Assembly (NCBI GenBank): GCA_951406725.2
Contig: OX597815.1
Span: 117,304,001-117,368,000, forward strand
Direction of reading: 5' to 3'
From: Octopus vulgaris
Lineage: Eukaryota
DNA length: 64,000 nt
The notes below the pieces were generated by a model. It ran no database searches. It saw only the letters and a program-made list of their open reading frames with translations, and had not been told where the DNA came from. Of the stretch, positions 1-55,854 are shown one piece after another. Each line of letters opens with the position of its first letter. Position 1 is the stretch's first letter. A program made the translations under genes and the position numbers.

Positions 1-497
1 TTTTAATCAACCGAATATGAACCATTTTGTTGCACAATGCATCTCCATCTTTCCTTTAACTTGAAAATACCAACTTCCCAGAATTGAGGTGGTTTCATGG
101 CAAAGAATTCATCAAGGTATCTTTTTATGTTATCCAAGGAATCAAAATTTTTACCATTAAGACAATTCTGCAGAGAGCTGAATAAGTGGAAATCCAAAGG
201 AGCAATATCTGGTGAATATGGAGGGTGGGGTAACACATCCCAACCGAGCTGCAGCAATTTTTGTCTGGTTCCCAAAGCATCAAGTGCTGAAAATGAACTT
301 TATTATCTTCCATTTTAAAAGGTTACAAAATTAACACAGGTTATAGGAACATAAACCTTCTTCCACGAAAAGATAGCTTAAACTGTGCTCTAAATAGAGT
401 TGTAGTCAAATCCTATTTTATGGACTCAACCATGTTCTAAAATAAGTCGAAAGGTAAACTACTACAAATCAGCACAAACTTTCCGGATAACCCAATA
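1..497 (-). mobile_element. Internally deleted mariner (Tc1/mariner) element
   Basis: C-terminal motif WDVLPHPPYSPDIAPLDFHLF; N-terminus MEDNKVHFQHLML at 313; TIR-like end tattgggttatccggaaagtttg (minus) ending in TA near 497. Confidence 0.85.
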
Positions 498-576: not shown

Positions 577-892
577 GTAAGATACCTATATCATCATCAT
601 CATTTAATGTCCGTTGTCCATGCTGGCATGGGTTGGATGGTTTGACTGGGGTCTGGTAAGCTAGAAGGCTGCACCAAGCTCCGGTCTGATTTGGCATGGT
701 TTTCTATGGTTGGATGCCCTTCCTAATGCCAACCACTCTGAGAGTGTACTGGGTGCTTTATGTGTCACCAGCATGGGTGCCATTTGCATGACACTGGTAG
801 CTACCACAACTGTGATTTTGCTTGATATATATATGTATATATATATACATATACATATATATATATCTGTAAGTAATTTATTTTATAGAAGG

Positions 893-943
893 AGCTTCTA
901 CAGGACTAGAACTGTTTCATTCAGATGAAATCTTCAGGAAGCT
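893..943 (-). ncRNA. Type I hammerhead ribozyme motif (inverted copy of 7062-7112)
   Basis: Reverse complement reads agcttc CTGAAGA t ttcatctgaa t GAAA cag ttctagtc ctg TA gaagct. Confidence 0.75.
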
Positions 944-1790
944 GGCTGTCAAAATAAGTTCTGGTATTTATGCATTTAGGCAGATTTAATGGAGTCGTGG
1001 TGGGGGACGTTTTTTTGGGTAGGTTGGTATTTAGGAGATAAACGGCACAAGCTATTGTTCTTAGGGGAGTGGTCAAAAGGCCAGAGTGTTTTTTGAAATG
1101 AGAAGAATCAGTGAGAAAATAAATAAATGAATAAATAGAATAAATGAATAGAAACAGATATATGGGATGGGATTTTAGGTAAATTAGAAGACAATTGCTT
1201 TTTGGTGGTCAAGAGGAGGTAGGCAGTTTGTTATTGTTAGGTGGAGGGAATAGATAAATATACATGAAAAAACATATAAAATAAATATACATACAAACAC
1301 ACATAGACTACTCCAGAGAGCGCATTCTTACACGGGAGGCCATACTTGCTGTGACCTTTGCATTTCTGAGAGTTTGGAGATCTTATTCACCAAAGGCCCT
1401 CTCCTCAACAAGATCTCGGAACACTCCCCAAACTGTATGCACAAAATCTATGCAAACTACAAAAATTACAGACCCACCCGGCCACCCGATTGACGATACC
1501 CCCCCCCCCCGCCACCGTTCCTTCATCACCCCCAATTACCTTCCCTCCTAAGACTATATACATATGTATATATATATATACATATGTATATATGCACATA
1601 TATGTATATATGTGCATATATATGTATGTGTGCATATGTATATGTACATATGTATGTGTATGCGTGTATATGTGTATATATGTGCATATGTATGTATACG
1701 CGTGTATATATATGTGTATATATATATATATATACATATGTTTGTATGCGTGTGTATGTATTTATGTATGTATGTGTGTACGCGTGTATA

Positions 1791-1839
<49 letters not shown>

Positions 1840-2096
1840 GTTTGTATGCGTGTGTATGTATTTATGTATGTATGTGTGTACATGTGTATGTATTTATATG
1901 TATGTATATGCATATGTATGTGTTTATGTATATATATATGCATATATGTGTTTTTATATGTGTATGTATATATGCATGTATGTATTTATGTATATATATG
2001 TGTGTGTGTATGTGTATGTATGTGTATATGCATGTATATATTTATGTATGTGTATGTGTATTTACATGTGTATTTGTATATAAATGTACGTGTGTA

Positions 2097-2139
<43 letters not shown>

Positions 2140-2253
2140 GTATTGATGTATATATATATATATATATATGTATAAGGGTGGAAAGGAACACACGAGTTGA
2201 TATATATGAAAAAACAAGTCAAAAATAGAAAATGCTAAGATGATTTTATAGTG

Positions 2254-2306
2254 AATCTTTCAGTACCGGTTTCGGTCATTTTGAGACCTTTTCAACTGTA
2301 ACGATT
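2254..2306 (-). ncRNA. Minimal type I hammerhead motif, U3-A8 core variant (in the sense 3' repeat of the PLE)
   Basis: Exact reverse complement of 5988-6040. Confidence 0.72.
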
Positions 2307-2789
2307 AAATAATTAAATTTTGAAAAATTTAGAAAAATTAGAAGAAAGGTTTTTTAAAGGAATACTTCCATAGTAGTGTTCAGATATATGTGGCATTCTG
2401 CCTTTCTCTGACTCCCTTGTTTGCACTTGTGTATTCGAGGTCGTTGTGAGTTCTTGAGGGGGTGGGAGTGGGAAAATCTGGGCTGGTCAGTGGCGACCGG
2501 CAGTCGCTGCGTAGGCGTTATACTTAAAGACATTAGTGGGGGTAGAAGGTGGAGAAGTAGAAGAAGAAGAAGAAGATGACGGTGCCGATGATGATGACGA
2601 TGAAGAAGGAGAAGGAGAAGATGACGATGATGATGAAGAAGAAGAAGAGGGAGAAGAAGAAAAAAAACAGAGAAGGGAGAATATGAATGGGTGAAGATAT
2701 AGCTGTTTTGGGGCGATTAGTAATGGATTCTATGGAATGTAATATTTGTGTGTGTATATATATTTCTTTTATTCTTAAGTTGAGCTATA

Positions 2790-5107
2790 TTAATTGTTTG
2801 TCGTAGACCCGTTAAGAAGTGGCCTGTATTTTATAATAAAGAGATTTTCTTTACTTATTCGTTGTCTCGAGGTTGTATCGTCCCTAAATTGGTAGAGGGG
2901 GAAAATTCTGAAGTTTGGTGTTTTTTTGTTGGCGCAAGTATCTATGTGTTGGCTAAAAGCTATTTTTCTGTTTTGGGGAATTTTTATCTGGGATCTGTGC
3001 AGGGCCCATTCGTTTACGCAAACCATTTTTTGTTTGGCCTATGTACTGCTCTTGACACCCGGAGCAGGTTAGTGAGTATATTAGGTTCTCCGAAGCACAT
3101 GTGAAGTTGCTTTTCACCTTAAACCGTTGTCCCTGTTTGAAGGAAAACTCAGAACCCTCGATTAGATAGTCGCATATCCCGCAATTGGGTCTTCCACATT
3201 TTTTTACTGTCGGCTTCTGTGTTGAAGAGTGAATTCGGGCTTGTGTTAGAAGACTTTTCATGGATCTAGACTGTCTTTTGCTTTTTATGATCGTGTGTGT
3301 TTGGAGGATTGTGTTCATTCTGTGGTCTTTTTTTAGGAGGGGTATGTTGTGGAGGATGGTGCCGAAGGCTTCGTTATTGAGAGGGTTGTGTGTGGAGATG
3401 TATGGTAAGGCTTTTGGTTGTAAGTTTTTCTTTGATTTGGGATGTCTCAGTTCCTTGATGTTAAGTTGAAGGGCACGTTGAATGCACTTGTCAATAAGTG
3501 AAGGTGGATAGTTCCTGGTGATAAGGGTATCTTTTAGTTCTTGTAGTCGTGTGTCTCTGTTGTTTGCGTTAGAGACTATAGTGCATATCCTTTTTGCTAG
3601 ATTGAAGGGGATATTCATCCTGGTGTGTCTGGGGTGGCATGAATTGAATGGAAGATATTGCTTAGAGTCTGTAGGTTTATAGTATATGTCTGTTTCTATT
3701 ATATTATTAGCTTTCTTAATGAGGATATCGAGGAAGGGAAGTTGTTGCTGGCTATATTCCATCGTGAATTGGATGTTTACGTCCAGCCCGTTTAAAATTT
3801 CCTGGAATTCTATGAGTTTTTCTATATTTTTATGCCAAAGAATGAAACAGTCATCTAGATATCTCTTCCAGTTGTTTTCTATGTAGATGGAGAAAGGGCT
3901 GCCATATCTTTCTAGAACCTTACGATATAGACTGATCTCTAGGTATCCTATGACTAGGTTGGCAAAGGAGGGGGCCATTCGTGTACCCATCGCAGTCCCC
4001 GATTTTTGTCGGTAGAAGTTGTCATTGAAGGCGAAGAAGTTATTTTCCAGGATGAATTTAACCCCTTCTATCACGAATTCTTTTTTGATGCGGTGTGGTA
4101 GTTCGTTGGCGTGATTCTCTAGCCAGAATTGGATTGCCTCTAGTCCTAGGTTGTGGGGGATATTGGAGTAGAGGTTGACTACATCGAAGGATACCAGTAT
4201 GGTGTTTTGGTTTATAGTATTCGGTAGGTGATTGAGCATATCTAAGTCGTCCCTTATATAGCTTTTGACATGTTTGAGGAGTGGTTTTAACAGGGTGTCT
4301 AAAAAGTTACTGAGGCGGTGGGTTTCGCATGCGGGACCTGCTATTATGGGTCTCAATTTGAGGTCATTAGGATTAGGGACTTTAATTATTTTGTCTGTGG
4401 CTATCTTGCATGCGTTGCTTATTTTTTCACTTTTGTGGATCTTAGGTATACCGTAGAATTGGCTAGTTTTACTTGTGAAATTGGTCATATAATCATATTC
4501 TTTGTCGGTGAGCCCTGCTTTGTATGGGTTAAATATGGATTTTAGTTCCCTCATTATTTTTTGTTGACTGTAGTTTTGTGCCTTTTCATAGTATGTTGTG
4601 TCTTCCAGCATAGAAAGAACCAAAGTTATGTAAAAAGTCGTATCCATTAAGACAACAGCACTCCCTTTATCGGCCTCTTTGATTGTTATTGTTTTATCTT
4701 GTTTTAATTTGTTCAACTCAGCCCATTCTTTTTTGCTGAAGTTTGGTTTGTGTTTTTGTTTGTGCATATGTTGATATGGGTAATTAGATATGTGGTCACA
4801 GAAATCAAGTGTTTTGTTCTTACCTTTCGAGGGGGTGTAGTTACTCCTATTTCTGGCTAACGATTCGTCCTCGTTGTATTTATCGTATAGCTCTTCAGTA
4901 AGTCTTAATTTTCTGCAGAATTCTGCGATGTCTTCTTTCATTTCGTTGTAGTTGGGGTGTTGTGGGGTGGGTGTAAACTTGAGTCCATTGGAAAGTATGT
5001 TTATTTGGTTTGCTGTTAGTTCCTTGTGAGTTAGATTGATAATTTTTATTACTTTTGGTTCCTCCTGCTTGTTTGGTGCTATCTTGTGTCTCTGTGTTTG
5101 CGTATTG
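2790..5107 (-). CDS. PLE polyprotein: reverse transcriptase, Cys-rich linker and GIY-YIG endonuclease (one +1 frameshift near 3003)
   Basis: Motifs FYGIPKIHK, LRPII, SFDVVNLYSNIP, GTAMGTRMAPSFANL, RYLDD, PFLDI, YKPTD; CGRPNCGIC linker; NLIYSLTCSGCQEQYIGQT...KENLFI...LN continues in ORF 2790-3026. Confidence 0.92.
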
Positions 5108-5987
5108 GGTGTGTCTGGGGTGGCATGAATTGAATGGAAGATATTGCTTAGAGTCTTCGGAGAACCTAATATACTCACTAACCTGCTCCGGGTGTCAAGA
5201 GCAGTACATAGGCCAAACAAAAAATGGTTTGCGTAAACGAATGGGCCTGCACAGATCCCAGATAAAAATTCCCCAAAACAGAAAAATAGCTTTTAGCCAA
5301 CACATAGATACTTGCGCCAACAAAAAAACACCAAACTTCAGAATTTCCCCCTCTACCAATTTAGGGACGATACAACCTCGAGACAACGAATAAGTAAAGA
5401 AAATCTCTTTATTATAAAATACAGGCCACTTCTTAACGGGTCTACGACAAACAATTAATATAGCTCAACTTAAGAATAAAAGAAATATATATACACACAC
5501 AAATATTACATTCCATAGAATCCATTACTAATCGCCCCAAAACAGCTATATCTTCACCCATTCATATTCTCCCTTCTCTGTTTTTTTTCTTCTTCTCCCT
5601 CTTCTTCTTCTTCTTCATCATCATCGTTATCATCATCATCGTCGTCATCGTCATCACCACCATCGTCATCGTCATCTTCTCCTTCTTCTTCATCGTCATC
5701 ATCATCGGCACCGTCATCTTCTTCTTCTTCTTCTACTTCTCCACCTTCTACCCCCACTAATGTCTTTAAGTATAACGCCTACGCAGCGACTGCCGGTCGC
5801 CACTGACCAGCCCAGATTTTCCCACTCCCACCCCCTCAAGAACTCACAACGACCTCGAATACACAAGTGCAAACAAGGGAGTCAGAGAAAGGCAGAATGC
5901 CACATATATCTGAACACTACTATGGAAGTATTCCTTTAAAAAAACCTTTCTTCTAATTTTTCTAAATTTTTCAAAATTTAATTATTT

Positions 5988-6040
5988 AATCGTTACAGTT
6001 GAAAAGGTCTCAAAATGACCGAAACCGGTACTGAAAGATT
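5988..6040 (+). ncRNA. Minimal type I hammerhead motif, U3-A8 core variant
   Basis: aatc g tt a cag TTGAAAA ggtc tcaaaat gacc GAAA ccgg TA ctg a aa gatt; palindromic ACCGGT helix III. Confidence 0.72.
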
Positions 6041-7061
6041 CACTATAAAATCATCTTAGCATTTTCTATTTTTGACTTGTTTTTTTCATATATATATATA
6101 TATATATATATATGGACATGTAGATTTATGTATGGGTATATATATATATATGTGTATATGTGTAGATGTGTATATGTATGTATGTATATGCATGTGTGTA
6201 TTTATATATGCATATATGTATTTATATGCGTATATATACTTATATATGCGTATATATATTTATATACACATGTTTTTATACGTGCATATGTGTTTATGTA
6301 TGCGTGTATATATTTATGTGTGTGTTTGTATGTACATATGTATATTTATGTATGTGTTTATATATGCATAATTATGTATATGTTTATATGTACGTGCGTA
6401 TATTTATGTATGTATACTTATGTGTATTTGTATGCGTTAAAGACTTGTTTTATTTATATTTCCTGAGCGCCATACTAATACAATTGTTTGTTTGTTTTCC
6501 ACCTGCCTTCGTCTTTTGTCTATTTTCATAAAGCTTCCCGTTATATATATATATATGTGCGTGTGTGTGTGTGTGTGTGTGTGTATGTAGGTGTATGTAT
6601 GTATATGTATATATATATGTGTGTATGTATATATATATGTATGTATGTATGTATGTATATGTGTATGTATGTATACATTTTGTATATTCGCATGTGTATG
6701 TATGTGTGTTTGTATGTATATTTATTTTATATGTTTTTTCATGTATATTTATCTATTCCCTCCACCTAACAATAACAAACTGCCTACCTCCTCTTGACCA
6801 TCAAAAAGCAATTGTCTTCTAATTTACCTAAAATCCCATCCCATATATCTGTTTCTATTCATTTATTCTATTTATTCATTTATTTATTTTCTCACTGATT
6901 CTTCTCATTTCAAAAAACACTCTGGCCTTTTGACCACTCCCCTAAGAACAATAGCTTGTGCTGTTTATCTCCTAAATACCAACCTACCCAAAAAACGTCC
7001 CCCACCACGACTCCATTAAATCTGCCTAAATGCATAAATACCAGAACTTATTTTGACAGCC

Positions 7062-7112
7062 AGCTTCCTGAAGATTTCATCTGAATGAAACAGTTCTAGT
7101 CCTGTAGAAGCT
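7062..7112 (+). ncRNA. Type I hammerhead ribozyme motif
   Basis: Stem I agcttc/gaagct; core CUGAAGA 7068-7074; short stem II ttc/gaa; GAAA 7087-7090; stem III cag/ctg; GUA cleavage triplet 7104-7106. Confidence 0.75.
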
Positions 7113-7780
7113 CCTTCTATGAAATAAATTACTTTACTCTGCTATGTATTGAATACCTTATTTACTGTGGTTAACCCCGACTCAACCCAGGACCTACATA
7201 TATCTATAAGTATATATATATGTGTGTGTGTGTATATGTATATATATATATATATGAATTACATATAATTGTGTGTTGTTTAGTGTCTACTTCAGACAGA
7301 ATATGTATGGAATTTGTTGAGGCATAGTTCCTATAGCTAGATGCCTTTCCTGTTACCAACCCTTACCTGTTTGCAGGCCAGGTAATATTTCCCCATAGGT
7401 AGATATGTTTTCCATTGAGAACTGGATGATGATGAAACTTGTTTAAAACCATCACATGATGTCAAGACAAGGGTACACACAAACACACACGCACACTCAC
7501 ATATACATGTTTATGCATATATACCATGAACTTCTTTCACTTTCCTTCTACCAAATCTTTTCATTAGGCTTTTGTCACCTTGAAGCTAAAGTAAACGACA
7601 CTTGTCTAAGGTGCCATGCAGTAGGACTGAACCTGAAACTAAATGCTTGGGAAGCAAGTTTCTTAACCACACAGCCTTGCTAGTAAATTTGGAGTTACCT
7701 TTTTGTTCTGTTTAATGTTTCAATTAATAAAACAAAAACAGAAAAACATCTAATTCTATTTCTGTAATTTATATCAACAG

Positions 7781-55854
<48,074 letters not shown>

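Follow-up and report, generated by a model that had tools for sequence, protein, structure and literature searches.

Nested Elements in Intron 2 of a TRPA1 Homolog

The window (the whole 64-kb stretch of Octopus vulgaris DNA that was analysed) contains a 6.3-kb unit of two Penelope-like elements (PLEs), one inside the other, which makes up more than half of an 11-kb intron. The exons in the window match the Octopus vulgaris protein named "TRPA1 homolog" by NCBI. Since exon 3 begins at 7781 and exon 2 is found before the start of the window, the unit is intronic and the host intron is intron 2. An earlier note on this DNA, made from the letters alone, had placed the nested unit inside a TRPA intron, and the location of both flanking exons bears this out. 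The features of the locus are the following.

L002:6609-6785: exon 2 of the TRPA1 homolog, 3.2 kb upstream of the window
871-1305, minus strand: outer tail-less inverted arm (copy of the outer 3' end)
893-943, minus strand: outer-family hammerhead motif (core 937, cut at 899)
1306-1493, plus strand: end of the outer ORF, 5'-truncated, with the CxxC..E..N..CxH of a Hydra-type GIY-YIG (longer copies: L102, L104)
1494-2171, plus strand: first half of the outer 3' UTR, a (TA/TG/CA) microsatellite and the target of the inner insertion
2172-2199, minus strand: inner tail, 28 nt; in tandem copies L075 and L090 the following unit begins with it
2200-3095, minus strand: inner 3' end (GIY-YIG end, 3' UTR), partner of 5155-6095
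2261-2298, minus strand: inner-family minimal hammerhead with U3-A8 core and palindromic loop III
2790-5107, minus strand: inner RT-Zn finger-GIY-YIG frame (ORF2), 5'-truncated, without ORF1 and slippery site; 1-nt frameshift near 3005
5108-5156, minus strand: templated insert of 49 nt, an exact copy of 3622-3670, with 2-3 nt of microhomology at both joints
5155-6095, plus strand: inner tail-less inverted arm
5996-6033, plus strand: inner-family hammerhead in TRPA1 sense, cut after 6030
6096-6700, plus strand: second half of the outer 3' UTR microsatellite
6435-6541, plus strand: 3'-terminal fragment of a third PLE family, 105 nt, 100% identical to L104 and L115 over 94 nt
6701-7134, plus strand: outer 3' end, tailed arm
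7062-7112, plus strand: outer-family hammerhead in TRPA1 sense, cut after 7106; weak stem II, without G10.1-C11.1
7135-7200, plus strand: outer tail, about 66-70 nt
7781-7887, plus strand: exon 3 of the TRPA1 homolog (host gene; protein match)

When contigs of four DNA runs are compared with 6690-8100, exon 3 and the unique intron sequence are covered in all four runs and the contigs break in repeats; the summed contig depth of these runs gives no copy number. In a run search with 7260-8100, no RNA run was among those listed, an outcome that carries no information on expression. Other repeats surround the unit. A transposase fragment with a YSPDIAP..F motif (window 3-299, minus strand) belongs to what we take to be a mariner-like family. 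Decayed non-LTR RT fragments, presumably RTE-like, lie on the minus strand of the next intron (9114-11085), with a copy at 30521-31842. A SINE-like repeat of 200 nt (590-806) has more than ten copies within the window.

Outer Element

The outer arms (871-1305 and 6701-7134; 435 nt) differ by three substitutions and one indel in self-comparison, and those of the inner element (2200-3095 and 5155-6095) by one substitution, microsatellite indels of 48 and 3 nt and four 1-nt indels; the coordinates that the earlier note had given for both arm pairs are thus confirmed, as are the nesting and the orientation (outer plus, inner minus).

The outer element is a 5'-truncated plus-strand copy, consisting of the ORF end, the microsatellite 3' UTR, the 3' end and the tail to 7200. 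A Pfam search with its ORF remnant returned no family. By motifs seen in translations of L102, L104 and the window copy, it is classed as Hydra-type: a CxCX5C linker, DKT, CxxC and CxH, and no CCHH, are common to this family and the Hydra clade as characterized in section 11 of PMC8557442, as are (TA)n insertion and a mollusc host. It is unlike the Hydra-clade elements of that section in its N-terminal motif (RWR in copy L104, for RWK), its microsatellite 3' UTR of 0.4-1.2 kb, its tail of about 70 nt and its hammerhead without G10.1-C11.1. Like the inner family, this one is abundant: its search gave 1305 first-look candidates, a figure not to be read as a copy number, of which the best 40 were scored.

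Large non-microsatellite inserts of 2.4-3 kb are present in the same UTR of three of the seven other outer copies that have both ORF end and 3' end, so nesting is common here. Two of these three copies, possibly duplicates of each other, carry a hammerhead array. This array (L099, L103) is non-coding, 563 bp long, tandem and inverted, lies within the outer-family microsatellite and is retrozyme-like.

The fragment at 6435-6541 was at first assumed to be outer UTR. This assignment was dropped, because the fragment matches L104 and L115 and belongs to the third family. It begins at most 4 nt from the predicted ribozyme cut of that family and holds no complete motif. The third family is very abundant and its core reads CUGUNGA, a deviant form; the fragment that starts at a predicted cut is a single case.

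Inner Element

The arms of the inner element enclose, as the earlier note had it, an ORF with RT and GIY-YIG parts. The RT is recognized on the minus strand by PF00078 (E 3.6e-8, above cut-off), and its translation has the PLE-type motifs GxKF, DKG and YLDD. RT and EN are joined by a CX4CxxC linker, which fits the Neptune form CX2-5CxxC, and the C-terminal end is of GIY-YIG type by motif, with CCHH seen in translation; PF01541 (GIY-YIG) is matched in the intact family copy only, below the curated cut-off (E 0.0012). By motif the inner element is Neptune-type. These RT, linker and GIY-YIG motifs are common to it and the Neptune-type EN+ PLEs of Craig et al. 2021 (PMC8557442, in the parts cited here), together with the 3' hammerhead, the inverted 5'-truncated copy, the tail at one end and the (TA)n target. 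The family has the pLTR form of EN+ PLEs, namely tandem (copy L090) or inverted repeats, an optional tail and a hammerhead. The family search gave 2392 first-look candidates (the best 40 were scored), a figure that is not a copy number. The inner and outer copies at this locus are dead, being truncated and without ORF1 and start.

In L074 and in the window (3095) the inner end of the inverted arm lies at the same place, to within 1 nt. These are two independent insertions; the coincidence is possibly due to an RT pause site, possibly to chance.

A Candidate Frameshift Site in Full-Length Inner Copies

The inner family has two ORFs with a -1 overlap and a slippery site, not a single ORF. In a full-length copy (L090:5092-8615), ORF1 encodes 411 aa and the RT-EN frame lies in -1, with a 21-codon overlap of the two around T TTT TTA. 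This heptamer is situated 5 nt upstream of the point at which the window copy breaks off. Fifty loci of five families (L126-L175 included) were examined, and in 44 of the 46 that retain both ORFs the heptamer is in phase and equally far from the RT N-terminal motif. In the own family it is found in 29 of 29 loci, part of which are tandem copies. In four other families, with 53-67% ORF1 identity, it is found in 15 of 17 loci; the two misses are due to a point change and a 1-nt loss. The chance expectation from composition is about 1e-3 to 5e-5 per family.

The conserved slippery site is a candidate for -1 frameshifting in five diverged families. Downstream of it, neither a hairpin nor a pseudoknot better than shuffled sequences was found in any of the five, and there was no consensus structure. 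In two families translation of the second ORF could be achieved by reinitiation instead, since an ATG is kept before the heptamer motif. ORF1 of the inner family matched no Pfam family; an FL...DTRW ending is common to three homologs. In Athena elements ORF1 is frameshifted. The legend of Fig. 1 in Craig et al. (PMC8557442) allows for a frameshifted PLE ORF1 with a pseudoknot, with which the -1 overlap and slippery site seen here would fit, but not the lack of a pseudoknot; a fish Neptune element with two ORFs is described without a frameshift in the part of PMC12602865 cited here. The full-length inner copies are unlike the Neptune-type PLEs in the cited parts of PMC8557442 in that their two ORFs are joined by an in-phase U UUU UUA.

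Inverted Arms and Tails

Sequences of 9.4 kb were taken behind 21 other tailed and 13 unpaired tail-less inner copies (all from the best 40) and behind 20 tailed outer copies. These copies are drawn from the best-scoring 40 of each family search and are biased to young ones. An inverted partner, counted as a hammerhead-bearing arm, was found behind 12/21 tailed inner, 2/13 tail-less inner and 7/20 tailed outer copies; L094 has a short piece that lacks this end, and L104 is complex. Inverted copies, one-sided tails and (TA)n targets are usual for PLEs according to the cited parts of PMC8557442 and PMC3846280. The inverted arm is a family-wide by-product, not special to TRPA1, and the locus is ordinary for this genome: a new instance of a known architecture.

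The window included, 15 inner pairs are available. Exactly one tail is present in all 14 with both ends (the arm end of L074 is lost), and in the window each of the two tails, 2172-2199 and 7135-7200, is on one copy only. That the tail is confined to one copy, as the earlier note stated for both elements, therefore stands. As a general mark of the longer, "direct" copy it was ruled out: the tailed arm is longer in eight of the 15 inner pairs and the tail-less arm in seven.

The near-identity of the arms could raise the suspicion of a foldback assembly artefact. However, substitutions and a 48-nt indel separate the arms, the two nested inversions are of different ages, and the same anatomy with fixed ends recurs at 14 other inner and seven other outer loci. 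Given these differences and this recurrence, an artefact is very unlikely.

Formation of the Arms

Arm divergence within a pair is lower than between loci, 0.43% versus 1.0% in the inner and 1.5% versus 2.4% in the outer family, values with which the order of nesting agrees. Inner pairs have 40 non-majority variants common to both arms, 12 of them private to the pair; two family polymorphisms do not agree between the arms of their pair (L088, L125). Each of the two inner end points has ATAT as its last letters and is followed by (TA)n. In the tandem copies L075 and L090 the tail continues into the next unit, and the distal end is placed in the loop of an 8-bp stem. The joints of the 15 inner pairs have 2-5 nt of microhomology (11/15), are blunt (one) or contain filler of 1-3 nt (one or two) or templated filler (two, the window's 49-nt copy of 3622-3670 among them). 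No target-site duplication was readable in the microsatellite flanks.

The simplest reading of one-tail pairs, shared private variants and an excess length on either arm is that each target strand primed one cDNA on a single template, where two fixed sites serve as starting points. The element endonuclease would cut both strands of a (TA)n target, and RT on a shared template would start from each target 3' end, at either of two fixed sites that end in ATAT. In the inner family these sites would be 28 nt apart and would yield one tailed and one tail-less cDNA. Both cDNAs would stop early, and microhomology would join them head-to-head; at some joints a templated patch would be added, such as the 49 nt in the window.

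Alternatively, a single cDNA or an antisense template could give the inverted arm by priming itself or snapping back, as proposed for rotifer PLEs from palindromic joints (cited part of PMC3846280). Private variants common to both arms fit such an origin as well, and the templated insert shows template jumping. Nevertheless, snap-back on one cDNA cannot give a tail-less arm that is longer in seven of 15 pairs and shorter in eight; in addition, the joints are microhomologies, not palindromes, and both outer ends are fixed points directly followed by (TA)n. Self-priming thus seems improbable, though less so than an artefact. Gene conversion between the arms could likewise produce shared variants, as could two RNAs transcribed from one source locus.

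Copying into two cDNAs agrees with the Anolis PAc element, in which, in the part of PMC11167929 cited here, both strands are extended and two RT start sites bound the tail, like those of the inner family with its distal end in a stem loop in tandem copies. Unlike that element as described there, genomic inner pairs use one site per arm (14/14). Frangieh et al., in the cited part of their work, found the start site to be alike on both strands; equal use on both strands does not by itself yield strict one-tail pairs.

Hammerhead Motifs

A type I hammerhead descriptor identifies four motifs, with cores at +5999, +7068, -2295 and -937 and cuts after 6030, 7106, 2264 and 899, respectively. The claim that each arm pair has its own hammerhead, giving two different motifs per strand, is hereby supported. 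In the 64-kb window the descriptor also gives one weak match, at 41522, and Markov controls (n = 20, 64 kb each) contain 0-2 hammerhead cores each.

The core nucleotides of type I, stems I and II and the NUH site are present. The inner motif has the U3-A8 covariation; its stem III cannot close in a monomer, and the palindromic loop III closes only in a dimer. In the outer motif U/U takes the place of G10.1-C11.1, and the fold of lowest energy is a different one from the ribozyme fold. Neither the inner nor the outer ribozyme fold was favoured over shuffles, a stable monomer fold being found for neither. The Rfam scan proposed as a check in the earlier note recovered the inner pair, weakly (HH9, 22.9 bits, below the gathering threshold of 52), left the outer pair unscored and otherwise returned microsatellite noise.

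On these sequence features the four are classed as PLE-type hammerhead motifs, putative rather than proven ribozymes. The minimal type I hammerheads of metazoan PLEs (cited part of PMC4209133) resemble the inner one in the U3-A8 core, the dimer-needing palindromic loop III and the opposite-strand pairs, and single minimal ones are inactive in vitro. They differ from the present case, where two nested families provide two motifs per strand. The hammerhead of the Anolis PLE is inactive without protein, according to the cited part of PMC11167929.

Predicted Masking and Editing in TRPA1 Pre-mRNA

Whichever strand is transcribed, the antisense arm comes before the motif. The pairable arm ahead of the plus-strand cores (5999 and 7068) measures 844 and 367 nt, and the duplex over the motifs amounts to -69 and -94 kcal/mol versus -4.3 and -6.7 for the ribozyme folds. 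Read-through transcripts would therefore zip into dsRNA, a probable ADAR substrate, rather than cleave. The arms have the potential for about 1.3 kb of dsRNA, and the outer plus-strand cut lies 675 nt before the acceptor at 7781, both in agreement with the earlier note (which gave about 670 nt). The competition between cleavage and folding that it envisaged is predicted to be lopsided: the antisense arm comes first, the duplex energies dwarf those of the ribozymes, a dimer is required by the inner motif and the outer one is devoid of G10.1-C11.1. Masking, editing and absence of cleavage in the pre-mRNA are predictions of this model.

Transcription that began inside an arm would produce an RNA with an unmasked motif. 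The 3' ends at 5155-6095 and 6701-7200 are of the kind that in tandem copies sit just before the next ORF. A hypothetical promoter in them would face TRPA1 exon 3, and the minus-strand arms face exon 2.

Editing of the arms by ADAR is plausible by analogy with published metazoan patterns. Very high hyper-editing and dsRNA load are reported for octopus in the cited part of PMC5625713, and editing of such hairpins is expected. It probably would damage the A-rich hammerhead core.

A regulatory role for TRPA1 is unlikely. Such a role would mean that the outer hammerhead, 675 nt ahead of exon 3, cuts an appreciable fraction of the TRPA1 pre-mRNA and, gated by ADAR editing of the arms, tunes TRPA1 output. 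The core is intact in four of four copies, the octopus editing and dsRNA load would suit ADAR gating, and the position upstream of an exon of a neural gene resembles that of the intronic CPEB3 ribozyme, which affects its own mRNA (cited part of PMC10274809). The latter, however, is single, conserved and active, whereas the motif here is young, repeat-borne and accompanied by its antisense strand in cis. This antisense arm lies ahead of the motif as its perfect complement, the ribozyme fold is not the energetically preferred one, the motif is unchanged family sequence without locus-specific tuning, and editing would presumably strike the core itself. Moreover, cutting by a hammerhead left introns able to splice in reported experiments (Dye 2006 and Fong 2009, via the cited part of PMC2995048). 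We consider cleavage on such a scale highly improbable. An editing-gated switch, in which ADAR loosens the 1.3-kb dsRNA and frees the outer hammerhead so that the editing level sets TRPA1 output, is just as improbable. Hammerhead repeats are depleted from Xenopus introns according to the cited part of a retrozyme preprint (10.64898/2026.07.22.740005).

Implications for Penelope-Like Elements

The locus is probably a young Neptune-type PLE that inserted into an older Hydra-type one, within the microsatellite 3' UTR of the latter, in intron 2 of the TRPA1 homolog, with arms likely made at insertion and four hammerhead motifs as passengers that are predicted to be masked. A literature search at the level of titles, with few subscription papers covered, found no paper on frameshifting in Neptune elements, on twin priming in PLEs or on octopus TRPA1 and editing.

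The conservation of the slippery site points to gag-pol-like expression in these PLE families, with no RNA stimulator involved. As a readout of how PLEs insert, strict one-tail pairs, shared private variants and an excess length on either arm predict copying of one template from both target strands, at two fixed sites. The arm-first geometry would account for introns tolerating ribozyme-bearing PLEs whichever way they point, and the same geometry would supply many long hairpins for ADAR.
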